40,504 nt of DNA. It comes from a virus (lineage: Duplodnaviria > Heunggongvirae > Uroviricota > Caudoviricetes). This document shows positions 1-40,035 of the stretch, piece after piece. Each line of letters opens with the position of its first letter. The first letter of the stretch is position 1. Below the pieces are notes generated by a model. The model did not search any database, was not told the DNA's origin, and saw only the letters and a program-made list of their open reading frames with translations. The stretch lies in IMG/VR virus record IMGVR_UViG_2526164632_000038; one strand, 5' to 3'. The position numbers and the translations under genes were made by a program.

Positions 1-247
1 CGGATATAACGGTGTTTTCAGGACGTACGACTGGTTCCGTGGAAAATTGTCCGTAAAGGCAGGCATCAAGTTCCTGCTCCGACATGCCTGCGGGCAAAGG
101 CCACGAAAGGCCAGCTCTCCGAAAGCGCACGAACATATTACAAACTGTTGATTTTGGTACACCCAGGCGACGCCCGGCCACAACCCGGGGTAAATGTTCT
201 TCAAAGTGAAGACGTAAAGCTTCAGTGATCCAGGTCCGGTGTTTCAT
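1..247 (-). mobile_element. Partial IS21-family istA-like transposase N-terminus (runs off window start)
   Basis: Minus-strand ORF from ATG at 247..245 to the window edge: MKHRTWITEALRLHFEEHLPRVVAGRRLGVPKSTVCNMFVRFRRAGLSWPLPAGMSEQELDACLYG. HTH followed by an AGLSWPLP motif that I recall from IstA proteins; family assignment is from memory only. Confidence 0.4.
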
Positions 248-326
248 ACGATAGTGTCCATTAAAAATGATGGACATTATTTTTGTAGAGCCGGAGGAAA
301 CAGACCAGACGGTTTAAATGAGCCGG

Positions 327-506
327 TTACGCTTTATATGAGCCAGGAGCATCTAAACAGGAACATGCCGGGATACCGACACCCACAGCAAGATATTCAG
401 TTGATGTGGAAATATATTCCCGTGTCTCACCATCATAATTGTAAACGGTAATGTCTCCCGCCTTTGTGGTGATGAGTTCGCTATTTAATACAGCTTTATT
501 CATCAT
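327..506 (-). pseudogene. Truncated tail fibre assembly protein (N-terminal 59-aa stub)
   Basis: ATG overlaps the tail fibre stop (ATGA at 503..506). Translation [59 protein letters not shown] then stop; far shorter than typical Tfa proteins and directly abuts the IS21-like fragment. Confidence 0.45.
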
Positions 507-1366: not shown

Positions 1367-2028
1367 GCTCCTACATCAAAACCACTGATGAATTCGTTAT
1401 CCATATCAAAACCAAAAAATTTTGAGCCTTCCGATGGGGTTTCCACCGAAGGAGTTTCAATGCCCCCCGCCCATACCCCGGCGGCTTTTACTGTGAGATA
1501 CCCCTGTTTAATTGCCGCAATTAACTCACGCGATACATCTGAAATATCAGTATCAGGAAAGACCCAGACCGATATCGTCATGTCCTGGTTATCGACTATC
1601 TGCATTCGCAGCCCGGATCCTGCTGTTGCCGCGTCAAGAATTGCCGGAAGCGAATCATTCCGTCCGTCCCAGTTATTAATCGCAATCTTCGCTTTAAGGA
1701 TGACACGATAAGTTTCATCGCTGAGGTACATGTATCCGGAATCAGGATCGTATGGTCCCTGCCATACACCCTGATCATATCCAAGCCCGTCGGTATCCCA
1801 GCTGAAATAAACACCTGAGATAGGCTGGCTGACAACACGGCTACGTCCGATCCACAATCCCAGAATGTCAAGTTGCACACCAACCGCAGAGTCAATATCA
1901 AATGCAGTAATCAGCCCTCTGGTGGCCGCCGCAACATCAATAAGCGGCCGGGTCATCAGATCAACATGTGCAAGAAATTTAGGTTTGGTGGCGTGGTAGT
2001 TCGTGATTAGTTCGGTGTATTTGCTCAT
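1348..2028 (-). CDS. Baseplate/tail-fibre-associated phage protein (resembles DUF2612-type proteins)
   Basis: 226-aa ORF between the baseplate J-like gene and the tail fibre, overlapping both neighbours; family resemblance is from memory. Confidence 0.45.
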
Positions 2029-3188
2029 GACTCCACCGTTATAACGATATTTTCCGGGGTACAGGACGCAGATTCGTTGTATCTGATATCAATGTTTGAT
2101 GACGACAAAGCCCCCGGAGATTTCCCAATCGTCAGTTCCTGAATATCGTAATAGCGTGCATTCCCGCCACTCACCACGCCAAGATTCGCCGGTGAGTAAA
2201 TGCGACTTAAAAGGACCGAATCACCAATCATCAGACTATTGATATAGTCGGAAATAGCCTGCTGGATCTGCTGCCCTATCTGTGAGGTATAACCCGTAAA
2301 AACTTTTAATTTAATCCGGGCATAAACAGGCACATCACTGGAACGCGAGAATTTGATTACATGGGGATTGCCGTATTTATCCGGAACCGTAACGGATGTT
2401 GTACCGTGAGTGGCTGTCCCCTGGCCTTTATTCCCTCTGATAGCCTGAGCAATATCCATCACATCACCGCCATCCACAATTACAGCAACAGAGTGTGGCG
2501 GTAACCCGTTACCGTCCTCCGAACCAGTATCGTTTTCATAGAGTTTGTGGCGGGTTACACCGGTAACATTAGAAACAGCACCATCCAGTGCTTCAAATGG
2601 GGTTATTGATGGCAACGCAACACTTTGCGACTGGCGGATACGTAACTCCGCATCAGTTTCTGCCGGAGAGCCAACAGTAGCCGCAGCAGGATTAGTTACC
2701 GAAACCCAGCCACGGGTTGGCGTATTAATTTCAGTGATAGTTCCAGCCAGCGCCGCCACTGCACCACTGACGGAACATGTTGCGGTCGCCATCACTGTAC
2801 CATCCACGCCGACCACCACTGAAGCAGGCAAACGCCATATCACACTATTACTGTCTTTCACGCTGCCATTAATGATGGTTGTTCCGGCAGTTCCTGTAAG
2901 AAGCAAATCAACCGTAGAATTCGTCGCGCCTTTACGTGAAATACCATTTATTTTCACGTTACTGGTCAGTGCGGCCCCATAGCCGGTTGCCGGTGAAAAA
3001 CAGTTGTAGACAGTTATCGCAGTATTATTGGCATCATGAATCGCCAGCGCCATCAGAGCCACCATCTGGCCGTCTTTACTATCCGGTTCGAGGTAGGTAG
3101 ACTGGCCCCCTGAATCTCCAGACAACCAGTATCACTTAAATAAGTGATAGTCTTAATACTAGTTTTTAGACTAGTCATTGGAGAACAG

Positions 3189-3554
3189 ATGATTGATGTC
3201 TTAGGGCCGGAGAAACGCAGACGGCGTACCACACAGGAAAAGATCGCAATTGTTCAGCAGAGCTTTGAACCGGGGATGACGGTCTCTCTCGTTGCCCGGC
3301 AACATGGTGTAGCAGCCAGCCAGTTATTTCTCTGGCGTAAGCAATACCAGGAAGGAAGTCTTACCGCTGTCGCCGCCGGAGAACAGGTTGTTCCTGCCTC
3401 TGAACTTGTTGCCGCCATGAAGCAGATTAAAGAACTCCAGCGCCTGCTCGGCAAGAAAACGATGGAAAATGAACTCCTCAAAGAAGCCGTTGAATATGGA
3501 CGGGCAAAAAAGTGGATAGCGCACGCGCCCTTATTGCCCGGGGATGGGGAGTAA
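3189..3554 (+). CDS. insC: IS2 transposase OrfA
   Basis: [41 protein letters not shown]... HTH protein; A6G slippery heptamer at 3506..3512 for -1 frameshift into orfB. Confidence 0.85.
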
Positions 3555-4417
3555 GCTTAGTCAGCCGTTGTCTCCGGGTGTCGCGTGCGCAGTTGCACGT
3601 CATTCTCAGACGAACCGATGACTGGATGGATAGCCGCCGCAGTCGTCACACTGATGATACGGATGTGCTTCTCCGTATACACCATGTTATCGGAGAGCTG
3701 CCCACGTATGGTTATCGTCGGGTATGGGCGCTGCTTCGCAGACAGGCAGAACTTGATGGTATGCCTGCGATCAATGCCAAACGTGTTTACCGGATCATGC
3801 GCCAGAATGCGCTGTTGCTTGAGCGAAAACCTGCTGTACCGCCATCGAAACGGGCACATACAGGCAGAGTGGCCGTGAAAGAAAGCAATCAGCGATGGTG
3901 CTCTGACGGGTTCGAGTTCTGCTGTGATAACGGAGAGAGACTGCGTGTCACGTTCGCGCTGGACTGCTGTGATCGTGAGGCACTGCACTGGGCGGTGACT
4001 ACCGGCGGCTTCAACAGTGAAACAGTACAGGACGTCATGCTGGGAGCGGTGGAACGCCGCTTCGGCAACGATCTTCCGTCGTCTCCAGTGGAGTGGCTGA
4101 CGGATAATGGTTCATGCTACCGGGCTAATGAAACACGCCAGTTCGCCCGGATGTTGGGACTTGAACCGAAGAACACGGCGGTGCGGAGTCCGGAGAGTAA
4201 CGGAATAGCAGAGAGCTTCGTGAAAACGATAAAGCGTGACTACATCAGTATCATGCCCAAACCAGACGGGTTAACGGCAGCAAAGAACCTTGCAGAGGCG
4301 TTCGAGCATTATAACGAATGGCATCCGCATAGTGCGCTGGGTTATCGCTCGCCACGGGAATATCTGCGGCAGCGGGCTTGTAATGGGTTAAGTGATAACA
4401 GATGTCTGGAAATATAG
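3512..4417 (+). CDS. insD: IS2 transposase OrfB (DDE catalytic domain)
   Basis: 301-aa ORF overlapping orfA in the -1 frame; IS3-family integrase-like core. Confidence 0.85.
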
Positions 4418-4559
4418 GGGCAAATCCAGTAGGCATCACTGCCATAAATCTGCTGAAAATAGCTAATCAGGGTGCTGAGTATCGTCTGATAATCAGGCGC
4501 ACTGATCCCCTCCGCGGTTACCTTTGCAGATAAACCGAGAGAATCAAGGTTCAGAGCCA

Positions 4560-4913
4560 TTACGCCTCCGATTTAACAGTCGTTATTCCATAGAGAGTGT
4601 CGATTTCAGCGGAAAACATGACACGTCGGGTCGTGGTATCCACCGTCGTATTGAAAGAGAGGATTGATTTAACGCCCCGCGTTTCGAGGATGCGCTTACG
4701 GATCGCCAGGTTGTAGGTTTCCGGCTTCTGCTTACCGAGCACAGACTGGATCCACGGGGTCCCTTCGGTGGTGTCGAGAAACCATTGCCCATACCACAAT
4801 TCAAATCGCGTTTTTACCGCCTGCGCCACGGCCTCCGGTGAGTTAATCAGCCAGGTGTCATCACCGCTGCCAAAGGTGTAATCGCCATCGGCGTCTTCAC
4901 GTCTGTATCGCAT
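4560..4913 (-). CDS. Small baseplate protein (gpW/gp25-like position)
   Basis: 117-aa ORF between the V-like and J-like genes; stop/start overlaps with both neighbours. Confidence 0.45.
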   Translation of the reverse strand: MRYRREDADGDYTFGSGDDTWLINSPEAVAQAVKTRFELWYGQWFLDTTEGTPWIQSVLGKQKPETYNLAIRKRILETRGVKSILSFNTTVDTTTRRVMFSAEIDTLYGITTVKSEA

Positions 4914-24983: not shown

Positions 24984-25155
24984 CTGTACCAATCTGTACC
25001 CACCTGTACCAGCTCTTTTCAAACCTTTTCCCCAAGCGACTTATATATATATATGGGGTTCTTAGTAATTAGGTTGGTACAGATGGTACAGTTGGTACTG
25101 ACCTTTAAATTCAATTAGTTAAAATGTACCAACCTCTATTTTGAGGCTGGTACAG
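24984..25155. repeat. Iteron-like repeat array flanking an AT-rich tract (candidate origin or regulatory array)
   Basis: CTGTACC at 24984, 24994 and 25004 (10-bp phasing); (TA)n tract at 25041..25054; inverse GGTACAG/GGTACTG at 25076, 25085, 25094; further copies at 25125..25130 and 25149..25155. Confidence 0.5.
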
Positions 25156-27328
25156 GTTGGGACACCGCCTCAAAAATTCGAGTCATTTTCCCCCCAATTC
25201 GCCTTTGGGCACGCTTATACCCGCAATTTTGCAAAACATTACTAATTCGCATTTCTTCGCGTTTTCCGATGCGGTCAGGATTTAGCCCAATCGCATCACG
25301 CAAAACATCACTTGCGCGTAAAAATTCGCAATTTCGCGGAAGTTCATTAGTCATCAGGTCTGGCGTGTCGAGCCATTTCTCTACCGTTTCAAGCCAAGCA
25401 TCCTTGATGGTGTACTGTTCATGGACACTCGCTGCCAGTTGTTCAGCCTCACGGAACTGGATACCCCCCAGACGCTGAAACACCTCACGAGCCTCAGCCC
25501 AAAGTAAAAGGAGATCTCTTTTTATCGCTTTCACGTCGACTTTCGACACTTCCACGGGGAGCCAGCGACGGTTACCAGTCTTGTCCGCAAGGAATTCGTC
25601 CTCATTGGTGGTACCAACGAACACCAGGCGACGAGGAAACTGGGTGGCGAACTCCCGGTATTTCGGGATCCAGTTTTCGTGAGTACGCGTCACAAACGCT
25701 TTGATTGACTCCAGCTCTTTGGTATTAAGTCCGCGCAGTTCACCAATCTCTGCCACCAGCCGACCACGCATTTTTCGAGCGAGATCATCGTCTTTTTCGG
25801 CAAAAGAGATTTCAGTAAAAAACGCAGGATCAGGGCTCAGTGCCTCCACTCCGGAAGACTTACCGCAGCCCTGCGGACCAACGAGGATCGGCACCATATC
25901 CGCTTTGATGCCTGGCTCCAGTACTCGCCCCGCCAACGCGGTCCACATGTACATAGACACCGCACGGGTATAAGGCGTGTCGGCTGTACCGAAGTGCGTA
26001 TGGTAGAAACATTCGATGCGCGGCACGCCATCCCACTCCAGCCCGTTCAGCCAGGTAATCGCTGAATCGAATGGTTGTTCATCGGCTGCAAGTAACACCA
26101 CATCGCGAATAAGTTCACGACCAACAGGTTTAAATCCCCGCTTTTCCATCGTGATGCGCAGGCGCGCATAATCCGCATCGGTGAATGCTCGCCATTGTCC
26201 GGATCCTGCAGAGGCAAACATGATTTCGTCGCGGAACTGGTCAAAGCGAATATCGATGTCCACAAAATCAGGGCGTACTACTGCTTTGGCTGCGTTGCTG
26301 ATGGTTGCCTCGATACGCCCCCATTTATCACGCTCGAAAGCAGGCAGCGGTAAAGGTTCCGCCACTTCGGTGCTGGTCAGATCTTCGAAATCGTCGTTGC
26401 GGATCCCGATGGCATTAAGGAAATCTCCGTCATCACGATGCGCACAACTGGCATGCAGGCATTTAAAATGCCCCTGCTCAAAGCCCGCGGTTCCCGCAGG
26501 AAAATAAGCTGTGCTTGTTGGATCGCCCCCGCTACTGTGGCCGTCTTCAAACGGACAGCGGATATATCGTTCACCATTTGCGCCATCCAGCAGCGTCCAG
26601 CCATTGGCATCAAGATATTCAGCTGTATCATCCGTCGCGCCGGGCGTGAATGCTGATCGGTCGCGCATCTTCGTGTTGCCCGCTTCGGTGGTTACCGACA
26701 CAGGGAGTTGTTCAGCCAGGCGCTGCCACAGCGTTTCAAGCTGCTCACCAGTAATAGCCGGAGGTTCATCCGGCAAACCACCGTCCCATTCAATACGCGC
26801 GCCGCTGCTGTGCGTACCACAGGCAACGAACTGCTGCCCGTTCGCCAGCAACTCGATAATGCCCATATCCCCCGCCAGGCGATGGATACGCTTACAGAAA
26901 TCACCATCAACGGCCAGCAGATACAGACACTTATTACTGTTTGCTCGCCAGCGTCGCGGCGGCAACTCCCCCAGAAGTTGCACAAGCGTTTTGCGAATAT
27001 CTGCCTGAATGTCTTCATCTTCGCTATCGCAGTCCAGCGCCAGCCAGCCATGGCCTGTACGCACGCAGATGCCATAATCCGGTTCATTCGACCAGCGGGC
27101 AAAATCATGCTCAGTAACAACATACCCGGTCCATTGAGCAATACCGGTGACCTGGCGGTCCCGGTTATAGCGACTTGGCGTCTTACCCAGCGCTTTCAGT
27201 TTACTATCAGGGGATATGGTCGCACCGGGGTTACATACAACTGGGAGAAGATGATCAGTTCTCCCCAATACCAGGTCGAAATGAAACCACTCATCAGGCG
27301 TAGCTCCCCATGGTTTGCTATCGGACAT
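25136..27328 (-). CDS. Primase-helicase (primase-polymerase-like N-terminus with P-loop NTPase C-terminus)
   Basis: 730-aa ORF coupled to cro; Cys/His cluster (CPFEDGH..HFKCLHASCAH); Walker A GPQGCGKS; Walker B-like LVFVGTTNE. Confidence 0.7.
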   Translation of the reverse strand: MSDSKPWGATPDEWFHFDLVLGRTDHLLPVVCNPGATISPDSKLKALGKTPSRYNRDRQVTGIAQWTGYVVTEHDFARWSNEPDYGICVRTGHGWLALDCDSEDEDIQADIRKTLVQLLGELPPRRWRANSNKCLYLLAVDGDFCKRIHRLAGDMGIIELLANGQQFVACGTHSSGARIEWDGGLPDEPPAITGEQLETLWQRLAEQLPVSVTTEAGNTKMRDRSAFTPGATDDTAEYLDANGWTLLDGANGERYIRCPFEDGHSSGGDPTSTAYFPAGTAGFEQGHFKCLHASCAHRDDGDFLNAIGIRNDDFEDLTSTEVAEPLPLPAFERDKWGRIEATISNAAKAVVRPDFVDIDIRFDQFRDEIMFASAGSGQWRAFTDADYARLRITMEKRGFKPVGRELIRDVVLLAADEQPFDSAITWLNGLEWDGVPRIECFYHTHFGTADTPYTRAVSMYMWTALAGRVLEPGIKADMVPILVGPQGCGKSSGVEALSPDPAFFTEISFAEKDDDLARKMRGRLVAEIGELRGLNTKELESIKAFVTRTHENWIPKYREFATQFPRRLVFVGTTNEDEFLADKTGNRRWLPVEVSKVDVKAIKRDLLLLWAEAREVFQRLGGIQFREAEQLAASVHEQYTIKDAWLETVEKWLDTPDLMTNELPRNCEFLRASDVLRDAIGLNPDRIGKREEMRISNVLQNCGYKRAQRRIGGKMTRIFEAVSQPVPASK

Positions 27329-28307: not shown

Positions 28308-28327
28308 GGGAGGCGTAACAGCCTCCC
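28308..28327 (+). terminator. Hairpin after cI (possible terminator, weak U-tract)
   Basis: GGGAGGC-GTAACA-GCCTCCC perfect 7-bp stem, followed by TTACCCCATTTG. Confidence 0.3.
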
Positions 28328-28335
28328 TTACCCCA

Positions 28336-28440
28336 TTTGTAAAGTCTTACAAATTAAATTCACTTAAATATCAATAAAGTAGTATTCACACCCCACAAAA
28401 TACCACGTTTGCGGTTTACACAATACAACTCAAATTGTAT
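28336..28440. promoter_or_regulatory. Candidate early-left operator/promoter region
   Basis: TTTGTA-N6-TACAAA at 28336..28353 and ATACAA-N6-TTGTAT at 28423..28440; half-sites resemble those between cro and cI. Confidence 0.35.
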
Positions 28441-28610
28441 CTTTAGCCACAAGTCGAACGGCGCGACTCTAAACCATGCGTCGGGACCGTGGCGGGACAG
28501 GATGTCGGCAATACGGGTCAGTAAGTTCCCTTTGGGGTGCGGCGAAGCACTGCCTACTGATACAAGTCGAAGCCGCCGAACCACCAAAGTGAACTGAATG
28601 AGGAAACGGC

Positions 28611-28805
28611 GTGAAAACATATAAACCGCTCAAAGGTGAATGCCCTGCTTGCCAAACACAGCTTCAGACACCAAAGCCAAAACGATACCAAATCAACGAA
28701 TGTTATGAGCACTGCCCTGGATGTGGTGCTTTCCTGCATACCATTGCAACGCACTGGCGTGTCCGCTTCAACCTTGTGGTACCACGTACGCACAATACCA
28801 ACTGA
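28611..28805 (+). CDS. Small zinc-ribbon-like protein
   Basis: GTG start with AGGAAA upstream; two Cys pairs (CPACQ ... CPGCG); first ORF of the plus-strand early operon. Confidence 0.35.
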   Translation: MKTYKPLKGECPACQTQLQTPKPKRYQINECYEHCPGCGAFLHTIATHWRVRFNLVVPRTHNTN

Positions 28806-28921
28806 ATCATCCATGTAATTGCTGTGTGTAGTCTTTGCCCGCCGCAAGTGACGGGCTTTTTTATGTCTGAAAGCGCACTCGCAACAGCGCGCTCCCCGAT
28901 ATGAAAAAAGGAATACAACCG

Positions 28922-29071
28922 ATGAAACCTGAACACCTCTATCGACTGACGGGGCGCGATGTTCTCCGTTATCGCCGTAAAAACTTCGATTTGATGACCG
29001 GTCTGGCCGTTGCCACTGCGCTCGGTCTGATCATCACTTTCATTCTCCTTGTTGCGAGGACCACAGTATGA
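28922..29071 (+). CDS. Small single-pass membrane protein (49 aa)
   Basis: AAGGA upstream of ATG at 28922; [49 protein letters not shown]; stop overlaps next ATG (ATGA). Below the ORF-track length cutoff. Confidence 0.35.
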   Translation: MKPEHLYRLTGRDVLRYRRKNFDLMTGLAVATALGLIITFILLVARTTV

Positions 29072-29970
29072 GTTTAGAAACCAGTCTCGAACTTAATAAT
29101 CAACTTCTGGCACAACATAATGCGCTGCTTGAACGTCTTATCCGCACAATGGCATCAGGTATTGTTATGCATCCTGACACGATTTCACGAGTGCAGGAAT
29201 GTCGGGATACAGCAACTGAAACTGAAAATATGTCAGCGGCAATGACACTGGATGATCTGGAGTTCAGCGACGTTATCGCACTGGCTGGTTTCTACCCGGT
29301 AGCCACCCCTATCACAGAAGACATGCTGCAACGTGCTGTTGCCTACCGTGATGCTGAAGGCGATAAACGAGTAGTTCAGATTGATCCTCTCGACAGCGCA
29401 TTGCAGGGCGTCAAACGAGCCAGGGCACTGCATAAACCCGCTCTTCTGGACCTGTCCCGTAACATTCTTAAGTTCTGGGACGACCTGCCAACCATCGGCG
29501 AGCGACGTGCTTTTGCCGAGCAACTACTTGATGCACCTGCAGATGGGCGTGATGAAGTTAAGCCGAAAAAGGCCAGTAACAAAGATGGAGAACGCACGGG
29601 GCCGTTTTACGTCAAAAATGTATCCGGCACAGCAGCCAGTGAACTCCACACCTTACGCAAGTTGAACGAGATGCTTAAAAAAGGCCATATCGAGATCAAC
29701 CGTGTTGAGTACCTTCAGCTGCAGGAAGAATTTGCACGCAGAGACGCAGCAAATTCCAGCCAGAATAATGACGCCAAAGATGACCATACAATTGATTTCG
29801 CGGCACTACGCAAACAAGCTGAAGGGTTGATCCTCCAGTTAGCAAAAGGGGGTTACCGGGCAGAAGCTATTGCAATTCTGGAAAAACAGGGAGCCAGGAA
29901 ACTTGGTGAAGTAACGGATGAAAATCTCGCTGAAGTAATCACCCTGGCTGAAAAAGCACTGGAGGGTTAA
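29068..29970 (+). CDS. Hypothetical early protein
   Basis: 300-aa ORF coupled to flanking genes; no family recognised. Confidence 0.5.
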
Positions 29971-29972
29971 TC

Positions 29973-31274
29973 ATGCCAGACGTTCATGCACAACTTTCTC
30001 CATCATCAGCGCATCGATGGATGCGCTGCCCAGGAAGTCTGGCGCTGGAGGCCACACAACCGGATAAAGAAACAACTTTTGCAATCGAGGGCACTGCAGC
30101 GCACGCGCTTGCTGAAAAAGTTCTACGAAACAGGCAAAGCCACCCGGAACACTACGCCGGATGCAATGTTTCTATGTTTCTCGGCTCATACCCCCTTCGC
30201 GAAAATCCTGATGATACATCTGGCCCACAGGTGGATGATGAAATGGTCGAAGCCGTTGGCCGGTATGTTGATACGGTCTGGACTCTTGCACAGAATAATG
30301 AACTATTGGTTGAACAACGTGTTGATTTCTCACATATAACGGGGGTGGAAGAATCTTTCGGAACTGCCGACGGCATAATCATCGCTGGTAACGAATTACA
30401 AATCCACGACCTGAAATATGGCAAAGGCGTCCGCATTGATGCAGAACAAAATGAGCAACTACAACTGTATGCTCTGGGTGCGCTCGAACAATTCAGCATG
30501 CTGTATGACTTTGAGACTGTAAGATTATTTATTCACCAGCCAAGGCTCAACCACGTTTCAGAATGGTCGTTAACCGTACAGGAACTTCAGTCTTTCGGTG
30601 AACGGGCACAGGAGGCCGCAACCAGTGCGATCCTTGTTCTCAATATTGCTGAATGCGAAGGCATTGAGACACTACCGCTGGAAAACTTCATACCTGGAGA
30701 AAAACAGTGCCGCTTCTGTAAAGCAAAAGCTATTTGCACTGCCCAGAAAATGCAGCATTTACAAACAGCGGCCAGCGATTTTGAAGATCTGACAAAGCCT
30801 GTCAGCGAAATAATCACCAATGCCAGCGCACGTGTACCTCTGTTAACCATTGAGCAGCTTGCGGAGATCTATAGCCAGGCCGACTTTATTGAATCCTGGC
30901 TAAAGGCAGTACGGGACCGGGTTCACAATGAACTCAATGCCGGACATCCGGTACCGGGGTTTAAACTGGTAACAGGAAAACAAGGTAACCGGGCCTGGAG
31001 TGATGAAGAGGCAGCTCGCGCACTTCTGAAGGACCAGTTCAGGTACAAAACTGAAGAAGTATTCGACTTTAAACTTATTAGTCCCACAAAAGCCGAAAAA
31101 CTTATCAAAAAGGCCAGTCCACGCCGTTGGTCAAAAGTCGAGGCACTGATAACACGAGCTGATGGTAAACCAACCGTCATTCCCGAGTCAGACCCACGCC
31201 CCGCACTCAATATCAACCCTGTAAATGATTTCGACGACGTATCCGACGATACGCTAACCGCAGACCTCATCTGA
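29973..31274 (+). CDS. PD-(D/E)xK nuclease with Cys cluster (Cas4-like; resembles DUF2800-type phage proteins)
   Basis: N-terminal RWMRCPGS Cys plus C-terminal [10 protein letters not shown] cluster; nuclease-like motif ...IHDLKYGKG. Confidence 0.6.
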
Positions 31275-31289
31275 TTTAAGGAAATACCC

Positions 31290-31838
31290 ATGAAACTGAA
31301 GCTGAACAATGTTCGTCTGGCCTTCCCGTCTCTGTTTGAAGCTAAAACTGTAAACGGCGAAGGCGATCCGCGTTTCTCCGCAGTATTTTTAATGTCTCCC
31401 AAACACCCACAACTGGAAGAAATCCGTAAAGCTATGAAGCAGGTAGCGAAGGAAAAATGGGGAGAGAAGTGGGAGCCCATTTATAACCAGCTGGAGAAAA
31501 AACTCAATCTGTGCCTGCATGATGGTGATGAAAAAGCAGAGTATGAAGGCTTCCCCGGTAATTTCTTCCTGAATGCTGCTAACAAAGCGCGCCCAGCTGT
31601 TCTTGATCGCGATCGTTCGCCACTTATTCAGGCTGACGGACGTCCCTATGCAGGGTGCTATGTAAACGCCGTTATCGATATCTGGGCACAGGACAATAAT
31701 TTCGGTAAACGCATTAATGCCTCACTCGGCGGAGTCCAGTTCCTGCGAGACGGCGATGCATTCGCTGGCGGCGGAGTGGCAAGCGCTGACGATTTCGACG
31801 ATATCAGCGAAGGTGCTGATGCTGAAGCACTAATTTAA
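31290..31838 (+). CDS. Phage single-strand DNA-binding-like protein (resembles DUF2815-type)
   Basis: 182-aa ORF with acidic C-terminal tail ADDFDDISEGADAEALI; sits between the nuclease and polymerase genes. Confidence 0.5.
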   Translation: MKLKLNNVRLAFPSLFEAKTVNGEGDPRFSAVFLMSPKHPQLEEIRKAMKQVAKEKWGEKWEPIYNQLEKKLNLCLHDGDEKAEYEGFPGNFFLNAANKARPAVLDRDRSPLIQADGRPYAGCYVNAVIDIWAQDNNFGKRINASLGGVQFLRDGDAFAGGGVASADDFDDISEGADAEALI

Positions 31839-31853
31839 CCCTACTTCATAGAC

Positions 31854-31872
31854 GCCCGGTTAAACACCGGGC
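31854..31872. terminator. Bidirectional hairpin between convergent genes
   Basis: GCCCGGT-TAAAC-ACCGGGC perfect stem between the SSB-like stop and the reverse-oriented membrane gene stop; no clear U-tract. Confidence 0.3.
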
Positions 31873-31890
31873 TACTGATTAGGCGTATAA

Positions 31891-32520
31891 TCACTCAGGA
31901 ATCTTAATCTTTCTCAATTCTTTATTTAGTTCACAGATCTTTTTCTTAGACGGGAAAGTATCATACATCCAAAAACCAACAGTCTCTAAAACTATTATCA
32001 TAACCATATACACAAGATAATTTAAAAGGCCTTCATTTTGCCCTATGGAAATAATGCAGATAATAGAAAAAAGGGTAAACAGCACAAAACACAGAAAGGA
32101 AAACAGACGACTAATAATAAATAAAAAACCTGAAAAATCAACATTAATAAAAAACACTCCGTTATCTTTCTCTATATAATTCTGAAGCTTAATCAACTGA
32201 TTTATATACTGTCTTTTTTCTAATCTATTGCAAATGTAAATAACATCTCTTCGGTTATAAGATGATTGCAATTTCAGCGCATCACGAATAATTTTATCAT
32301 TTATTCTTTTTTCTATGGCACTCTTATCCTCCTCATCCAGATAACGTTCATACTTAACTAAATATAAAATTAACTTCTTAACATATTTAGGCTCTTTATA
32401 CTTATAATTAAAAATGATCTTTCTTATCCAGACTCCCATAACAATCAAACATGAAAAAATATATCCAGCTATTTTCTCCAGATGCTCTGTATGGTCAATC
32501 AAGTATTGGATCATATGCAT
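31891..32520 (-). CDS. AT-rich reverse-oriented membrane protein (209 aa), unknown function
   Basis: Opposite strand to the surrounding operon; very AT-rich; N-terminal TM (IAGYIFSCLIVMGVWI), Lys-rich central domain, C-terminal TM pair. Confidence 0.55.
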   Translation of the reverse strand: MHMIQYLIDHTEHLEKIAGYIFSCLIVMGVWIRKIIFNYKYKEPKYVKKLILYLVKYERYLDEEDKSAIEKRINDKIIRDALKLQSSYNRRDVIYICNRLEKRQYINQLIKLQNYIEKDNGVFFINVDFSGFLFIISRLFSFLCFVLFTLFSIICIISIGQNEGLLNYLVYMVMIIVLETVGFWMYDTFPSKKKICELNKELRKIKIPE

Positions 32521-32566
32521 AATTAATCTTTTAATCAGTTAATAGAATAAAAACCAAGGTAAACAC

Positions 32567-34630
32567 ATGTCCAATATACTATGGGGCGACCTGGAAACCT
32601 ATTGCGAAATCCCTATTACGAACGGTACCCATGCGTATGCCGAAGGCGTTGAAGTGATGCTTTTCGCATGGGCTATCAACGACGGGCCAGTAAACGTGTG
32701 GGATATCACTGCCGGTGGTGGTATTCCACACGGCTTATACGAAGCAATCGCAGACCCTGAAACCCTGCTTTATTTCCATAACTCTCACTTCGACCGCACC
32801 GTTCTGCGTTATGCAATGCCGCGCCTGGCACCGCCAGTCGAACGTTGGCGCGACACAATGGTGCAGGCGCTGGCGCACGGTCTCCCGGGGTCTCTGGGGG
32901 AACTCTGCGAAGTACTAGGCGTCCCGCAAGACAAAGCGAAGGACAAAGAAGGTAAAGCGCTGATCCAGCTGTTCTGTAAGCCACGCCCGAAAAACAGCAA
33001 ACTGCGCCGGGCCACCAGCAAAACCCACCCGGAAGAATGGCGGCGCTTTGTTGCTTACGCCGGACTGGATATCGAGGCAATGCGCGAAGTCTATAAACGT
33101 CTGCCGAAGTGGAATTATCAGGGGACAGAACTGGCGCTCTGGCATCGTGATCAGCAGATCAATGACCGGGGCGTCTGCATGGACGTGGAACTCGCACGCG
33201 CTGCGATCGACGCGGTAGACCAGGAACAAAAGCGCCTGGCAAAGCGTACACAGGAAATGACTGATGGCGAAGTGCAGGCAGCCACACAACGAGACGCGTT
33301 GATTAAGCACATTGTTGAATCCTACGGTGTGGAGCTACCAGACATGCAACGCAGTACTCTGGAACGTCGTATTGCCGACCCCGATTTACCATCTGCCGTG
33401 AAAGAACTGCTGGCTATCCGCCTGCAGGCCAGTACTACCAGCACCAGTAAATACAAGGCACTGATGAAAGGCGTAAGCCACGACGGGCGCTTACGCGGTA
33501 CGCTACAGTTCTGCGGGGCGTCACGTACCGGTCGTTGGGCCGGACGGCTATTCCAGCCCCAGAACCTTCCCCGCCCTTCACTAAAACAGGAACAAATAGA
33601 CGAAGGCATCGAAGCACTGAAAGCCGGATGTGCAGACCTGCTGTTTGACAATATCATGGAACTAACCAGTTCAGCGTTACGTGGCTGCATTATCGCGCCA
33701 ACAGGCAAAAAGCTGGTGGTAAGTGACTTGTCGAACATTGAAGGCCGTATGCTGGCATGGCTGGCGGGAGAAGAATGGAAACTGAATGCATTCAGAGAGT
33801 ACGACGCCGGAACGGGTCCGGACTTATATAAACTGGCGTATGCAAAAGCTTTCGATATTGCACCAGATGATGTTGATAAACACATGCGTCAGATCGGTAA
33901 AGTCATGGAACTCGGTCTGGGTTATGGTGGTGGTGTGTCGGCCTTCATCACTTTTGCACTGGTTTACGATCTCGATCTCGACGAGCTGGCGAACGCCGCA
34001 CTACCAAACATTCCCCGCGATGTTATCCGCGAGGCGAAAAGCTGGTACGACGAATCGGTTAAACGCAAGTCAACCTACGGGCTTTCTGAACGGGTATTTA
34101 TCGCCTGCGACTCACTTAAACGTCTCTGGCGCCGGGCGCATCCCGCGACCTGTGATTTCTGGTACGAACTGGAGCGCACCGTCCGCACTGCAATCGCCAC
34201 ACCGCAAAAAACATTGTATTGCGGTTATCTTAAAATCCGCCGCGATGGCGCGTGGCTGCGCATACAGCTACCATCCGGACGCGCTGTATGCTACCCGTCT
34301 CCGGTTATCGAAAAAGGGAATATCACCTACATGGGGGTTAACTCTTATTCGCGTAAATGGCAACGACTCAAAACCTACGGCGGAAAGCTGGTGGAGAACA
34401 TCACCCAGGCGGCCGCCCGCGACATTCTGGCCGGAAACATGCCGCTTATCGAAGATGCCGGTTACAGCATTGTGCTGACGGTACACAACGAGGTGATCAC
34501 CGAAGCACCTGACACAGAAGATTTCAACGATAAAGCGCTTTCCGCGCTTCTCTCCACTGACCCCGAATGGGCGCCCGATATCCCACTGAACGCTGGCGGT
34601 TTTGAGGCGTACCACTACAAAAAAGATTGA
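32567..34630 (+). CDS. Family A DNA polymerase with 3'-5' exonuclease domain
   Basis: Exo motifs DLETY, HNSHFD, YAGLD; pol motif A DLSNIEGR; motif [15 protein letters not shown]; motif C position reads VHNEV. Confidence 0.8.
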
Positions 34631-34694
34631 TATAACTCACCTTATCGAGCTATGGCGACATGCTGAATTCGAGTAAATTAAAGGAACAATACTT

Positions 34695-35456
34695 ATGCAG
34701 GAACTAACTGAAATGCCGATCACCTATCCATACCCGAGAGAAACTTTTCCTGACTTTTTGAGGGAGTGTGGGTTCACCAATTTTTCCCACGAACAGCGTG
34801 AGACTTGTGACTGCTATCGTTTAACGAATGGCGTAATTGTTAACCTTTACACCACCCGGACCATTCAGTTTCAAGGTAACCCTCAAGAACGTCCCAATGT
34901 TGAAACTGCAATAATGACCCATTTAGGAACGCCGCCCACGGCAACACCACTAGCCGTAGAACAGCCATCTGAGCTCCCCAAAAAGATATTCATTGTTCAC
35001 GGCCATGACCATACTGCAAAGGAGCAACTTGAGCTAATCCTTCATAAACTTGGATTACCAGACCATTTCATTTTGCAGAATACGGGAGGGACTGGACTCA
35101 CCATTATTGAAGAGCTTGAACGTGAAATTGGGCAAGGACAAACTGCTACCCGTTTCGGGATTGTTCTTTTGACACCTGATGATATGGGATACTCAAAGCG
35201 CGCCGGTGAAGCAGAAATCCAACCCCGCGCAAGACAGAACGTTGTACTCGAGATGGGTATGCTTCTTTCGTCCTTAGGGCGCAGCAATGTAGCAATCCTT
35301 CAGAAACAGCACCTAGAACAGCCTTCTGATGCTAACGGGATTTTGTATCTGAATTTCAACGACCATGTACGTGAAACAGTTCCTCGTCTAGTGCAACGGT
35401 TACAAAATTCTGGTTTCGAATTTACACAAGCTCAAATAGCTAACGCTTCCTCGTAA
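34695..35456 (+). CDS. TIR-like domain protein (candidate defence effector)
   Basis: C-terminal region KIFIVHGHDHTAKEQLELILHKLGLPDHFILQNTGGTGLTIIEELE...LLTPDDMGY...PRARQNVVLEMGMLL matches my recollection of the TIR-like nucleotide-binding family (FIVHGHD start, LTPDD, conserved Glu in NVxxExG); N-terminal 95 aa unassigned. Confidence 0.55.
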   Translation: MQELTEMPITYPYPRETFPDFLRECGFTNFSHEQRETCDCYRLTNGVIVNLYTTRTIQFQGNPQERPNVETAIMTHLGTPPTATPLAVEQPSELPKKIFIVHGHDHTAKEQLELILHKLGLPDHFILQNTGGTGLTIIEELEREIGQGQTATRFGIVLLTPDDMGYSKRAGEAEIQPRARQNVVLEMGMLLSSLGRSNVAILQKQHLEQPSDANGILYLNFNDHVRETVPRLVQRLQNSGFEFTQAQIANASS

Positions 35457-35479
35457 TTACCCCTTATTGTTGATTACAA

Positions 35480-35504
35480 CCCTGCATCGCGGGGTTTTTT
35501 ATTT
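35480..35504 (+). terminator. Rho-independent terminator after the TIR-like gene
   Basis: CCCTGC-ATC-GCGGGG hairpin followed by TTTTTTATTT. Confidence 0.5.
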
Positions 35505-35519
35505 GGGAATAAAAACCCT

Positions 35520-35654
35520 ATGTCATTTAAATACCGGGACAGTCCGCTTTATTACCGGACTGTGCGGGAGGCTTTGCACCTTGAACAGTCCGGCGGGTAC
35601 GACCGGGCGATGCAGGTCTGGGCCAAAGCGAACGTCGGTTTGATTTTTGTCTGA
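35520..35654 (+). CDS. Small ORF (44 aa), possible small regulator
   Basis: MSFKYRDSPLYYRTVREALHLEQSGGYDRAMQVWAKANVGLIFV; no strong SD; below the ORF-track cutoff. Confidence 0.2.
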   Translation: MSFKYRDSPLYYRTVREALHLEQSGGYDRAMQVWAKANVGLIFV

Positions 35655-35690
35655 TGCAGAACATGCGCGAAAAGCGTAAGGAGGTGGACG

Positions 35691-35885
35691 ATGTCTAATA
35701 TCGATAATAAGGGTTGGGGGTTCCCCGCTCTGTCAAAAAAAGCACATTTCTTTAATTCGGGGGAAGCCATATCACTATGCGGAAAATGGATGTTCATAGG
35801 TATCAGGATTGATGAATGGCATGACCATCCTGAGAACTGCGCTATCTGCATGAAGAAACGCAAAAAGCAGGAAGGCGAAAGCTAA
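35691..35885 (+). CDS. Small Cys-containing protein (64 aa)
   Basis: Strong SD AAGGAGGTG 5 nt upstream of ATG; stop overlaps the next start. Confidence 0.45.
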   Translation: MSNIDNKGWGFPALSKKAHFFNSGEAISLCGKWMFIGIRIDEWHDHPENCAICMKKRKKQEGES

Positions 35886-36172
35886 TGGCCTATGAACGTG
35901 AAAACCTAATCGAAAAGCACCTCGTCGCTGAAGTAAAAAAGGCTGGCGGGGTTGCCTTTAAGTTCGTATCCCCCGGTCGCCGCTCGGTACCAGATCGCAT
36001 TGTTCTGCTACCCGGCGGTCGTATCATTTTCGTTGAATGTAAATCCCCCGGCAAGCCACCACGGCCTGACCAGTTGCGCGAACACGGACGGTTGCGCGCG
36101 CTGGGCTTTACCGTAGTGGTGCTGGATAGCAAAAATCTGGAGGCCATTATTTTAAGCCGCAATAAAGGATAA
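35885..36172 (+). CDS. VRR-NUC-type PD-(D/E)xK nuclease
   Basis: 95-aa protein with VPDRIV ... FVECK motif. Confidence 0.55.
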   Translation: MAYERENLIEKHLVAEVKKAGGVAFKFVSPGRRSVPDRIVLLPGGRIIFVECKSPGKPPRPDQLREHGRLRALGFTVVVLDSKNLEAIILSRNKG

Positions 36173-36184
36173 AAGACTTATGCT

Positions 36185-36766
36185 TTAATCCGTATTTTTA
36201 ACACGTATTTCGAAACACCCTTTTAATTTAGCTATTTCCTTTTTAGAGGACATGATTGTGAATCTCATCCCTTTTAAATCATTAACAAATTCAAATTTTG
36301 CGCTATTTGACTCACAATCACCAACAACAAAACCACTACCAAATGAATTGAGCAACACTTTAGTATTACTACCATCTACCATATAATATTCGTTATTTTT
36401 AAATGCAGTAACCTTCCCGAATGTATAGCTCAATATCAACAACGTTATCACCCCTAAAGGAAAAGCTGACTTTAGGATTTTTAAATCGATATAATAAAAT
36501 ACGTTCTTATACTCTGCAAGCCTCCCAAATTTTCTAATGCTCTCCATATGATGTTCGTGTCTCTTACTATGGATTGGCATGGACACCACATTGTGATAAT
36601 TCAACAAAAGCATAGCAAATAATAAAATATCCTGAACACTCATCACAGAAGTTTTGGAGAAATAACCAAAAGGCCAATGAAATCCTATTATACAAATATT
36701 AGCCATTAGCATAACAACTATAAATACAATAAATGGAACATAATATTTCCCTTTCAAATCAAACAT
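36185..36766 (-). CDS. AT-rich reverse-oriented membrane protein (about 193 aa), unknown function
   Basis: Three hydrophobic segments in the N-terminal half, soluble C-terminal 80 aa; ATG at 36766 overlaps the upstream gene stop by 8 nt. Confidence 0.5.
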   Translation of the reverse strand: MFDLKGKYYVPFIVFIVVMLMANICIIGFHWPFGYFSKTSVMSVQDILLFAMLLLNYHNVVSMPIHSKRHEHHMESIRKFGRLAEYKNVFYYIDLKILKSAFPLGVITLLILSYTFGKVTAFKNNEYYMVDGSNTKVLLNSFGSGFVVGDCESNSAKFEFVNDLKGMRFTIMSSKKEIAKLKGCFEIRVKNTD

Positions 36767-36980
36767 CAACGCCGCATATAAGGCGCCGAGAAATAAAAAC
36801 TAAAAACAAAAGCCACACAGCCGAATACAATAGCGTATTTAAGTCTATTTTAATAAAAAGGTCTGGATAGCCATAATACGATGCAACACCTTTCTGAAAA
36901 GAATATGCCATCGCATAAGCTAACGCTGAAAACATAGTTAATAAAGAAACTTGCTTTGTAAATATTTTCGCCAGGGGCAT
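36759..36980 (-). CDS. AT-rich small membrane protein (73 aa), first gene of the reverse-oriented pair
   Basis: Two hydrophobic helices (VSLLTMFSALAYAMAYSF; LLYSAVWLLFLVFI). Confidence 0.45.
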   Translation of the reverse strand: MPLAKIFTKQVSLLTMFSALAYAMAYSFQKGVASYYGYPDLFIKIDLNTLLYSAVWLLFLVFISRRLICGVDV

Positions 36981-37043
36981 ACCCGCCTCCGTTAGTTATA
37001 TATATAGAGAGAGAAGTGACCATATTCTACCATAGGTGTATTA

Positions 37044-38438
37044 ATGAATAGCATATTCCACCCCAGAGTTTATCAAAACCTCATAATCAATCACCAAACT
37101 AACATTCTGCGCGGCAACATCTGGGCGGGTATGGGAATGGGTAAAACCGTGGCAACGCTCACTGCGCTGGAAGATCTCTTTATGGCAGGGGCAGAAACAT
37201 GCCCCGCACTGGTCCTCGCGCCGCTGCGCGTGGCTGCCAGCACATGGCCGGATGAAGCACTGAAGTGGGGACATTTGCGCAATATCGAGGTGCAGCCAAT
37301 TATTGGTAATGCCAAAGCGCGCTCTATGGCGCTGACGAACAGCAACGCAAGCGTGTTCACCATCAACTACGATAACCTTGTCTGGCTGATTGAAGAATTG
37401 GGAGAACGATGGCCGTTCGGTACTGTCATTCCAGATGAAAGCACCCGGCTAAAATCCTTCCGGCTGCGCGGTGGTGGTAAGCGCGCGGCGGCGCTGGGCA
37501 AAGTGGCGCATAAGTATGTCCGGCGCTGGATAAATCTCACCGGTACGCCAGCACCGAACGGCCTGGTAGATTTGTGGGGACAATCGTGGTTTGTGGACCA
37601 GGGGCAACGTCTCGGGCGCACTTACGGCGCGTTTACCTCACGCTGGTTCAACTCGATACAGTTTCCGGGGCAGAGCTGGACCAAACTGGAGCCTTTTGCT
37701 CACTCACAGGGTGAAATACAGCGAGCGTTAGCCGATGTAACCCTCTCGCTGGATGCGGCCGACTGGTTCGATATCAAAGACCCCATCCATAACGTAATCC
37801 GCGTGGATATGCCACCGAAGGCCCGTCAGCAGTATCGTGAAATGGAAAAGGAAATGTTCCTCGAGCTGAATGGCGAAGGCATCGAAGCACCGAACGCCGC
37901 GGCAAAGACACTGAAGTGTCTGCAAATCGCCAGCGGCGCAGTATACACAGATGACACCGGAAGTTGGTCAGAACTGCATGACACCAAACTACAGGCGCTG
38001 GACAGCATACTGACCGAAGCAGCTGGCGCACCTGTGCTGGTTGCTTATCACTGGAAACACGATCTTGAACGCTTGCTTAAAGCATTCCCTCGCGGTCGTC
38101 ACCTCGACCAGGATCCACAGACACTGCGCGACTGGAATTCCGGAAAGATTCCTGTTCTCTTTGCACACCCAGCCAGCGCGGGCCACGGCCTGAACATGCA
38201 GGACGGCGGAAATATACTGGTATTTTTCTCACACTGGTGGGACCTGGAGCAATATCAGCAAATTATTGAACGTATCGGCCCCACCAGGCAGATACAGGCC
38301 GGACACAATCGTCCGGTATTTATTCACCACATTATTGCTGCCGACACTATGGATGAAATGGTGATGGAGCGGCGCAACTCAAAACGAACAGTGCAGGACA
38401 TCCTGCTCGATGCCATGAAAAAGAGAGGTATAGCATGA
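37044..38438 (+). CDS. SNF2/DEAD-like superfamily 2 helicase
   Basis: Walker A GMGMGKT, motif II IPDEST, C-terminal helicase domain. Confidence 0.7.
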   Translation: MNSIFHPRVYQNLIINHQTNILRGNIWAGMGMGKTVATLTALEDLFMAGAETCPALVLAPLRVAASTWPDEALKWGHLRNIEVQPIIGNAKARSMALTNSNASVFTINYDNLVWLIEELGERWPFGTVIPDESTRLKSFRLRGGGKRAAALGKVAHKYVRRWINLTGTPAPNGLVDLWGQSWFVDQGQRLGRTYGAFTSRWFNSIQFPGQSWTKLEPFAHSQGEIQRALADVTLSLDAADWFDIKDPIHNVIRVDMPPKARQQYREMEKEMFLELNGEGIEAPNAAAKTLKCLQIASGAVYTDDTGSWSELHDTKLQALDSILTEAAGAPVLVAYHWKHDLERLLKAFPRGRHLDQDPQTLRDWNSGKIPVLFAHPASAGHGLNMQDGGNILVFFSHWWDLEQYQQIIERIGPTRQIQAGHNRPVFIHHIIAADTMDEMVMERRNSKRTVQDILLDAMKKRGIA

Positions 38439-38635
38439 GCGAGAAACCCGACGATTTACTCACCCCGGATGAAGTATGCCAAAAGTTAGGTATTACACAG
38501 AAAACGCTATGTGAGTGGAATATTAAGCATCGTCATCGGGCTATCCTGGCACCAATTCGTTTCAGTGCAAAAGTAGTTCGTTATGAGCGCCGAAATATCG
38601 ACGCTTTTATTCAAAAATGTCGCAGCCAGTATTAA
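38435..38635 (+). CDS. AlpA/excisionase-like small HTH protein
   Basis: 66 aa, LTPDEVCQKLGITQKTLCEW HTH; start overlaps helicase stop (ATGA); 3' end overlaps the convergent integrase stop. Confidence 0.55.
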   Translation: MSEKPDDLLTPDEVCQKLGITQKTLCEWNIKHRHRAILAPIRFSAKVVRYERRNIDAFIQKCRSQY

Positions 38636-40035
38636 CCTCGCCGCCGTAGCAATGCCACCTGCGCAAGTATGCTCCGCTCGTGAGCCTCGAAAGCTTCGCG
38701 CTTCAACGCAATCTCTTCCTGTAAAATCTCATCAGAAAAGTCGTAATGTTCTGCCATCGGGTCATCTGACTTGCTGGAGTGGTGAAGGCAAAGGAGGCTG
38801 ATTTCCCTTCGGTCTGAGCGGGAATAGCCTCTTTCCTTCATCAAGGCAATAACATTGCTCTTAAGGAATTTACGGCACATCGTATTAAATGCACCGTCTT
38901 TCCCTTTAACAGTCCCATCATGTTTTATTCCTTTTACAGCCCCGTCCGGGCTGTATGTTTTCACCAGCTTATCCAGTGATCGTTTTGAAAATGGCTGCAT
39001 TGGATCACGTGGCTGCAAAAATACATAATCCCTGTTGCACTCAGGAACTGAATCACGCCAGGCTTTCTGCTCGTCGATAATCCGCCGGATCTCAGGGGTT
39101 ATCGGCAGGCGGAAAGCCTTTTGTGTTTTCATAGCCCCTCGCATGCCGATAACCCCTTCCGGATAAACAATTTCACCAGCCTCCTCGTGAACGTAGTCCC
39201 AGCGCAGGTTATGGACATTAATCGGACGAACACCAGTGATGATCATGAAGCGAACAGCATTCTTCTGGTGTACAGAGGTGCAGGCAGCAACATTGAGCCA
39301 GAGTCGGGCGATTGATTCAATATCGGTAAAAAGCCGTGTGGGGGTAGGTTTCTGTACGCGGGAGGAAACATAATCATCTGGCAGACTGGCGGCAACATTG
39401 CGGCCGTTGCAAAGAGTAGGTGCGCAGAACTTCCAGAACCGACGGAGCTCGGCAAACAACTCCAGGGCGTTATTGTTCGAGCGAGTAGCGATCCACTCGT
39501 CCAGCACTTCCACCAGCCGATTGTATGTTACGTCGCTGAACACCTCGCGCTCGCCGAACGTTGCTTTAATCCGGTCGATACGCACCCCGTAGGTTGTGAA
39601 ACTGTCCGGGCTCAGCTTCTGCCGGGCGACTTTGGCTTTGAGGTCATCCCGGTACATTTCCAGCGCTGCATGTACGGACTCTGCCCGCAGGCCACCGTCA
39701 GCCATACCTAGCGCTTTTTCGCGCGCCAGCTGGATAGCGAGCTCCGGCCACTCGCCGAGCTTTTTACCTTTGAGGCCCATCTTTTTTGGAAACTCGGCGT
39801 AAAATGTAACCTTACCGGCTTTGCTGAAATCGATACGGAGATAGTTCTCTTTTTCGTATTTGGAACGGCGAGCCACGCCGGAAGCAGCGAGGATGATTTT
39901 GGCGGCAGCAACACAGATTTTCATGTGTGCGCTAGTATAGGGGGGTTTACAGGCGTCCCATTTTTCAGAAGCGGCTAAAACATCGTCATTATTGGGGCTA
40001 TCCGGATTATGTGTTACAGTGCGCGGCATTCTCAA
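38632..40035 (-). CDS. Tyrosine-type site-specific integrase
   Basis: About 465-aa ORF at the prophage edge, adjacent to an AlpA-like gene and the host gene; catalytic residues not individually verified. Confidence 0.7.
   Translation of the reverse strand: MRMPRTVTHNPDSPNNDDVLAASEKWDACKPPYTSAHMKICVAAAKIILAASGVARRSKYEKENYLRIDFSKAGKVTFYAEFPKKMGLKGKKLGEWPELAIQLAREKALGMADGGLRAESVHAALEMYRDDLKAKVARQKLSPDSFTTYGVRIDRIKATFGEREVFSDVTYNRLVEVLDEWIATRSNNNALELFAELRRFWKFCAPTLCNGRNVAASLPDDYVSSRVQKPTPTRLFTDIESIARLWLNVAACTSVHQKNAVRFMIITGVRPINVHNLRWDYVHEEAGEIVYPEGVIGMRGAMKTQKAFRLPITPEIRRIIDEQKAWRDSVPECNRDYVFLQPRDPMQPFSKRSLDKLVKTYSPDGAVKGIKHDGTVKGKDGAFNTMCRKFLKSNVIALMKERGYSRSDRREISLLCLHHSSKSDDPMAEHYDFSDEILQEEIALKREAFEAHERSILAQVALLRRRG

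Follow-up and report, generated by a model that had tools for sequence, protein, structure and literature searches.

A natural Asp-to-Asn substitution at the motif C catalytic position of a prophage family A DNA polymerase, confined to one clonal lineage of Escherichia coli

The family A DNA polymerase gene of an E. coli prophage encodes asparagine where the motif C of its relatives has the catalytic aspartate (residue 641). We put the probability at about 80% that this D641N change recently inactivated the enzyme of a prophage in decay and was then passively inherited within one clone. The DNA analyzed, here called the window, is a stretch of 40,504 nucleotides. An earlier note, made from the sequence alone, had pointed out the His-Asn-Glu at the motif C position and its AAC codon, both of which are present in the window, and had left open an inactivating change in a decaying prophage, a variant typical of the phage lineage, or a misassignment of the motif. 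The first of these is favored by insertion sequence (IS) hits in tail and baseplate genes, by derivation of the allele in one nucleotide step, and by the precedent of Bst polymerase D830N; the other two are contradicted by the alignments and homologue counts presented below.

The 687-amino-acid (aa) protein combines an N-terminal 3′-5′ exonuclease domain with a C-terminal polymerase domain (Table 1). It matches Pfam PF00476 (DNA_pol_A) with 48.1 bits, against a gathering cut-off of 34.3, and the PHROGs family phrog_17 (DNA polymerase) with an E value of 4e-125; the Pfam match to the 3′-5′ exonuclease domain is weak. Compared with the PDB, the family profile matches Klenow (E 1.6e-17). An AlphaFold model, for which a 51-sequence family alignment served as input, has a mean pLDDT of 93.7 and a pTM of 0.90; its best PDB match by Foldseek is Klenow 1d8y (E 1e-17, TM 0.62/0.70), and the top matches, all full length, are Klenow, the apicoplast polymerase, Aquifex Pol I, and the Bst large fragment (E ~1e-17). 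The predicted structure has the right-hand polymerase fold and an N-terminal exonuclease domain of the DEDD 3′-5′ type.

Table 1. Coordinates of the polymerase gene, its motifs, and other prophage features in the window
Feature	Position	Strand	Basis or remark
IS66-family (ISCro1-like) element end, interrupting tail-fibre assembly gene; window begins inside it	1..330		collinearity with FDAARGOS_1059
Baseplate J/gp47-family gene, split by IS2	2028..4560	-	tblastn of intact 399-aa homologue
Complete IS2, 1331 bp, insC/insD	3098..4428	+	NCBIfam matches, terminal inverted repeats, 5-bp target duplication GTAGG
VapE-domain primase/helicase-like gene, same prophage	25136..27328	-	PGAP annotation of identical region; PF05272
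DUF2800/PD-(D/E)XK nuclease and Enc34-type ssDNA-binding protein, upstream of polymerase	29973..31838	+	PF10926, E 1e-109; PF10991, E 8e-44
Family A DNA polymerase gene, 687 aa	32567..34630	+	ORF, PF00476, phrog_17, predicted structure
Exonuclease motifs Exo I (DLE), Exo II (HNSHFD), Exo III (YAGLD), intact	32579..33082	+	alignment A1 and sequence
Motif A, catalytic D387 and E392 intact	33710..33754	+	invariant columns in A1
Motif B (O-helix), intact	33878..33940	+	invariant columns in A1; Klenow/Taq alignment
Private missense G468D, GGT to GAT (G-to-A at 33969)	33968..33970	+	window/DEC12C allele only
Motif C hairpin	34466..34516	+	A1, predicted structure, sequence
Codon 641, AAC (Asn), at motif C catalytic Asp position	34487..34489	+	Taq D785 and Klenow D882 alignments
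VRR-NUC nuclease, downstream of polymerase	35885..36172	+	replication module
SNF2/DEAD helicase, downstream of polymerase	37044..38438	+	replication module
Tyrosine integrase at prophage end, adjoining host yfhL	38632..40035	-	annotation of matching loci

The exonuclease motifs and polymerase motifs A and B are canonical, as the earlier note had judged them to be, both in the sequence itself and in the invariant columns of our family alignment (A1). The exonuclease residues are D8 and E10 (Exo I), D76 (Exo II), and Y164 and D168 (Exo III); D8, E10, F75, Y164, and D168 occupy invariant columns. D387, E392, and R394 are invariant within motif A, where the D387 segment aligns with the DYSQIELR of Taq and Klenow; D387, the counterpart of Klenow D705, lies at the end of strand 381-388 in the AlphaFold model. 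Motif B has invariant R441, G444, K445, L449, and G455, and its R441 and K445 align with the O-helix of Klenow and Taq. With the profile, fold, motif A, and motif B of family A but not the His-Asp-Glu of motif C, the protein belongs to family A by descent and lacks one residue needed for the activity of the family.

Motif C of the window protein is H640-N641-E642 (VH-N-E), within residues 637-646 (encoded at 34475-34504), and its codon 641 differs by a G-to-A transition at 34487 from the GAC of relatives. By phmmer, this segment aligns with Taq LQVHDELVLEAP, and the 51-sequence family profile (ivltvHDEliteap) aligns with Klenow IMQVHDELVFE; an upstream element, TQAAARD (TQAvArD in the profile), falls on Klenow MQGTAADI, as expected. 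In the AlphaFold model, residues 640 and 641 form the turn from strand 634-639 to strand 642-648, in the canonical hairpin of motif C. Since the Taq, profile, and structural-model placements agree, N641 is the counterpart of D882 in Klenow, D785 in Taq, and D830 in Bst, residues that correspond to one another and of which the Asp has been called invariant (PMC10520511). The Pfam match does end at residue 457, short of motif C, which would suit a true motif C with an intact Asp elsewhere in the protein; however, the Taq and Klenow alignments, the invariant H640 with its conserved D641 and E642 neighbors, the predicted hairpin geometry, and the full-length Klenow-like fold all place the motif here, and the C-terminal palm holds no second HDE. 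We consider a misassignment ruled out for practical purposes.

Equally improbable is an error in the one base that makes the codon AAC. E. coli DEC12C encodes a protein identical to that of the window (EHX30138.1), as does a read-based assembly of SRR096442; 17.9 kb of the window (22567-40504) is 100% identical to the DEC12C and SRR096442 loci. FDAARGOS_1059, a separate assembly with the same AAC, differs from the window over 27.9 kb by three substitutions and three homopolymer indels, plus IS content. These homopolymer differences reveal small errors in one assembly or both, but the AAC change is a substitution rather than a homopolymer indel, and the codon recurs across projects, platforms, and reassemblies (SRR096442, ERR3062034, SRR124116, GCA_000250235.2, GCA_000250255.2, and NZ_CP066032); we checked it in ERR3062034, SRR124116, GCA_000250235.2, and FDAARGOS_1059. 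The protein with G468 and N641 is found on 32 contigs and in 51 index blocks, the four just named among them. The earlier note had proposed a check of read support, and the independent assemblies and read sets that carry AAC rule out a sequencing error.

The same note had proposed a multiple alignment, and had held that Asn throughout the close homologues would speak against its reading of the codon. We found the opposite: Asp (as VHDE) is present in all 120 of the nearest 90%-cluster representatives, which are 87-91% identical to the window protein, and in 160 of 160 diverse homologues. The diverse set comprised 150 representatives at 44-98% identity together with cluster members, each counted if it covered motif C, and its count includes the correction of three intein-caused misalignments: BLAST gave an apparent S, E, and R at position 641 in P0180, P0257, and P0278, where large insertions just ahead of motif C had displaced the alignment and the real motif C reads VHDE. 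In family alignment A1, H640 is invariant, and at least 90% of the rows have D641 and E642, the window protein being the sole exception in the 641 column. Asn is therefore ruled out as a family-wide trait, nor is it typical of the phage lineage, since every close and distant homologue has Asp, including the BPP-1- and APSE-type relatives sampled. A conserved pseudoenzyme can likewise be dismissed: Asn is limited to one near-identical pair of alleles, all other homologues examined have Asp, and the single change that followed in the lineage is nonsynonymous. The pattern CAYAAYGAR occurs 4 times against 2.8 expected; because pattern counts provide no chance test for a single codon, the significance of the Asn rests on this conservation.

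A screen of 5,426 complete E. coli genomes returned GAC in 145 and AAC in 1, FDAARGOS_1059; the AAC 40-mer matched no phage record. Each 40-mer of the screen had its diagnostic base at position 20, such that every 28-base megablast seed spans that base. Asn is restricted to one clonal E. coli lineage (DEC12C, FDAARGOS_1059, and related assemblies), and only one origin of D641N was seen in the genome screen. The FDAARGOS_1059 polymerase gene is identical to the DETEC-P1056 allele at 2,063 of 2,064 nucleotides, the lone difference being the G-to-A of codon 641. The DETEC-type Asp protein (P0122) is widespread, occurring on 211 contigs, and its allele lies at the same chromosomal site; it has GAC at codon 641, whereas the window has AAC and, in addition, G468D. 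Since the Asn allele is one nucleotide away from a common Asp allele, Asn641 is a recent, derived, single-step change inherited in one clone. The column of G468D is unconserved in alignment A1, and the residue lies in a loop with a local pLDDT of ~80.

Diverged allele classes of the gene differ by 64 synonymous and 12-14 nonsynonymous substitutions (pN/pS ~0.06), and between these classes the polymerase is under strong purifying selection. Near-identical resident alleles show few differences, nearly all nonsynonymous, although the numbers are very small; both changes on the branch leading to the window, D641N and G468D, are nonsynonymous. Such an excess among resident alleles would be expected of a lytic gene that the lysogen keeps silent.

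The prophage is inserted between the E. coli genes yfhH and yfhL and extends from tail genes to the integrase beside yfhL; in the source genome yfhH flanks the opposite side. Like a cryptic prophage, it is integrated and has its integrase at the host junction. The polymerase is 67% identical to Bbp42 of BPP-1 and 61-64% identical to P45 of APSE, over 100% of the query. Judged by this homology and by the genes that accompany the polymerase in the window (Table 1), the replication module appears to be of the BPP-1/APSE type. The polymerase gene is located in the lytic early region and is directed away from a LexA/S24-type repressor gene; adjoining it is a TIR-domain gene that matches the PADLOC candidate defence family PDC-S35 (E 7e-109).

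Damage to the prophage extends beyond the polymerase. Window positions 1-3097 are collinear with FDAARGOS_1059, in which PGAP places ISCro1 between the two halves of a tail-fibre assembly gene; this insertion is common to the window and FDAARGOS_1059. The IS2 copy (NCBIfam matches to IS2 TnpA, E 2e-82, and IS2 TnpB, E 9e-219) is found only in the window, and its breakpoints and duplicated GTAGG were mapped against FDAARGOS_1059. It separates residues 40-399 of the baseplate J protein, encoded at 3107-2028, from residues 1-44, at 4560-4429; in FDAARGOS_1059 the gene is intact. Disruptions of the kind that characterize cryptic prophages thus affect the baseplate J gene, the tail-fibre assembly gene, and the catalytic Asp of the polymerase. 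The other phage ORFs of the window that we compared are equal in length to their homologues, which argues for an early stage of decay. The prophage of DETEC-P1056, the nearest strain with the Asp allele, is mosaic; its portal gene is interrupted by an internal stop, and its tail fibre is truncated. The "frameshifted" flags in PGAP annotations proved uninformative as a sign of decay: an ANR-regulator frameshift was flagged in three of four relatives inspected, DETEC-P1056 being the one without it, and a DUF2213 frameshift (C6 versus C7) occurs in FDAARGOS_1059 only and not in the window.

How the Asn should affect the enzyme can be judged from other family A polymerases. In Bst, D830N, described as "sterically conservative," was "completely inactivating" for phosphoramidate (NP-DNA) synthesis, whereas E831Q was tolerated in the same assay (PMC7132125, PMC10886449). 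The bond formed in this assay is a phosphoramidate, not the native phosphodiester. Klenow Asp705 and Asp882 are essential for catalysis, and the equivalent changes in human POLG, D890N and D1135A, yield polymerase-deficient, dominant-negative enzymes (PMC1904276). The double change D705A/D882A has been used to make a dead Klenow ("dKlenow"). A literature search for D882N, D785N, and D654N in family A enzymes gave nothing relevant beyond Bst D830N. By analogy with these enzymes, the N641 protein probably still folds, binds DNA, and retains its exonuclease site, and we infer that it would be unable to polymerize at a useful rate.

Two readings compete with a loss of function by decay. One is that the substitution is tolerated, with the N641 enzyme still active enough for phage replication and its metals bound by the Asn carbonyl together with D387 and E642. 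Asn, an isostere of Asp, could coordinate Mg2+ with its carbonyl oxygen; neither D387 nor E642 has changed; and the polymerase is still encoded by a full-length ORF. However, Asp is invariant among all homologues examined; Bst D830N had no detectable activity in NP-DNA synthesis while E831Q was active; and catalysis depends on D882 in Klenow and on its counterpart in POLG. We regard tolerance as improbable. Somewhat less improbable, though still unlikely, is that the knockout was selected: loss of the polymerase would block replication of the prophage and lysis upon spontaneous induction and so ground the prophage in its host, while useful cargo such as the TIR-domain PDC-S35 gene was kept. 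In a variant of the idea, the dead enzyme, still able to bind DNA and with its exonuclease active, would act as a dominant negative against the replication of related superinfecting phages. In keeping with selection, the lone change from a widespread allele strikes one of the very few residues whose alteration abolishes catalysis, the N641 allele persists across many isolates, the neighboring gene matches a candidate defence family, and polymerase-dead family A enzymes are dominant negative in the POLG system. Against it stands an ascertainment bias, in that the change was noticed precisely for its position at a catalytic residue. Moreover, the IS hits in virion genes indicate that the prophage was or became defective regardless, other resident copies decay differently (as by the internal stop in the portal gene of DETEC-P1056), D641N has a single origin without recurrence, and the polymerase, in the lytic early region and pointing away from the repressor gene, is probably not expressed in the lysogen. 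Given the single origin, the co-occurring IS hits, and the ascertainment bias, ordinary prophage decay is most likely, with no new kind of polymerase or chemistry.

Under ordinary decay, events probably ran as follows. The polymerase would have been the replicative enzyme of a temperate phage with a BPP-1/APSE-type module, integrated between yfhH and yfhL. A spontaneous G:C-to-A:T transition in one E. coli lineage then converted the motif C Asp, the catalytic metal ligand and general base, to Asn. Without the carboxylate, both catalytic Mg2+ ions would lack one of their ligands and the primer 3′-OH its nearby base, so that nucleotidyl transfer would be expected to cease or to slow by orders of magnitude; after induction, the prophage would be unable to replicate its own DNA. 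Because the polymerase would be silent in the lysogen and the prophage already defective, drift or clonal hitch-hiking most likely carried the allele to fixation. G468D would have arisen afterwards in the strain represented by the window.

RefSeq and GenBank label the gene "DNA polymerase," whereas the enzyme, to judge from its motif C, is almost certainly inactive, and annotators would do well to regard the prophage as defective. In the form carried by FDAARGOS_1059, the allele would amount to a natural catalytic knockout by one nucleotide on an otherwise identical, widespread allele. It may serve as an exo+/pol− control for a little-studied family of phage polymerases, and possibly as a lineage marker for the E. 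coli clone.

The catalytic residues that define the comparison are D705, D882, and E883 in Klenow; D610, D785, and E786 in Taq; and D653, D830, and E831 in Bst. Classical mutagenesis of these residues in Klenow is reportedly the work of Polesky and colleagues (J Biol Chem 1990, 1992). The window protein shares with the three enzymes the exonuclease-plus-polymerase architecture, the fold, motifs A and B, and the H-x-E of motif C, but it is only ~15% identical to them, lacks a 5′ nuclease domain, and has Asn in motif C. It resembles POLG D890N/D1135A and dKlenow in having lost a catalytic carboxylate while keeping the fold; unlike those laboratory constructs, made as inactive controls, N641 arose in nature and has become fixed in a clone of bacteria. 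Cryptic and defective prophages are a general phenomenon in E. coli, and the window prophage is like them in being integrated, flanked by an integrase, hit by IS elements in virion genes, and affected by point mutations in silent lytic genes; it differs from typical examples in that its decay is early and its other compared ORFs are full length.

Full-length homologues with 61-98% aa identity are found in Bordetella phage BPP-1 (Bbp42), Hamiltonella phage APSE (P45), Yersinia phages YeP4-6, and three E. coli records of prophage type, vB_EcoM-606R2, 689R2, and 611R5. We rejected the vB_EcoM-606R2 record (ON470579) as proof that relatives with Asp are viable: it contains host tadA, pgpC, and yfhH and, on its sequence, looks like an excised prophage region. 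A literature search found no paper mentioning ON470579. The 606R2 polymerase carries Asp, which we checked directly, as do all representative homologues examined. Several relatives have intein or HNH insertions, which the window polymerase lacks. The gene order of 606R2 is that of the window: DUF2800-type nuclease, Enc34-type single-stranded DNA-binding protein, polymerase, TIR-like gene, nuclease, and helicase.

Among the near-identical polymerase alleles of resident prophages (compared loci L002, L003, and L006 to L009), nearly all differences are nonsynonymous; by contrast, pN/pS is ∼0.06 between the diverged allele classes. This difference in substitution pattern suggests that slightly deleterious changes build up in silent lytic genes during residence as a prophage. 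A large share of the polymerase homologues carry insertions of ∼300 aa that are intein- or HNH endonuclease-like, including the long homologues P0180, P0257, and P0278, many others of ∼900 to 1070 aa, and APSE-1 P45/P46; one of these insertions lies immediately ahead of motif C. These insertions gave rise to false non-Asp calls at the catalytic position in simple pairwise alignments.

Features near the polymerase gene and in the virion genes (window coordinates)
Feature	Position	Strand	Details
IS66-family element (ISCro1-like)	1-~330		window start falls within element
Baseplate J/gp47 gene, two pieces flanking IS2	2028-3097 and 4429-4560	-	
IS2, complete (insC/insD)	3098-4428	+	bounded by terminal inverted repeats; target site duplicated over 5 bp (GTAGG)
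209-aa hydrophobic ORF, ~28% GC (strongly AT-rich)	31891-32520	-	phrog_10579 match
253-aa protein with CAP12/Pycsar-type TIR domain	34695-35456	+	PF10137, E 3e-31
"ANR family transcriptional regulator, frameshifted"	~35520-35698	+	PGAP flag in relatives
Second AT-rich ORF, between VRR-NUC and helicase genes	36185-36980	- (opposite strand)	

The TIR-domain gene lies directly 3′ of the polymerase gene, a position kept in all relatives inspected, and its product matches PDC-S35, a PADLOC candidate single-gene defense family, along its whole length (E 7e-109). The hydrophobic ORF sits between the SSB and polymerase genes on the opposite strand. It had no match in Pfam, NCBIfam, or PADLOC, and the phrog family that it does match is of unknown function; it looks like a moron, that is, cargo gained from another source. 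The second AT-rich ORF encodes 265 aa, with a weak PF27470 TfpB match, in the near-identical prophage of Escherichia coli FDAARGOS_1059, but in the window, indels within A-runs (36800-36802) break it up. Another gene, encoding a DUF6338 protein, occupies the same place in strain BCE049; the site is therefore a variable cargo slot.

PGAP flagged the ANR regulator gene as frameshifted in FDAARGOS_1059, 357900, BCE049, and IAI1, but not in DETEC-P1056. Conservation of this apparent frameshift across strains makes decay less likely than a poorly fitting annotation model or a recoding site. The DUF2213 head gene is intact in the window (406 aa) but "frameshifted" in FDAARGOS_1059, a difference accounted for by a C7 versus C6 homopolymer (window position 17169; position 4604 in L002, the FDAARGOS_1059 locus); either one of the two sequences was misassembled here or the strains truly differ.

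IS2 breaks the baseplate J/gp47 reading frame after about codon 44; the FDAARGOS_1059 prophage, although otherwise near-identical, lacks IS2 in this gene. The tail-fiber assembly gene is disrupted by the ISCro1-like element, and FDAARGOS_1059 carries the same insertion.
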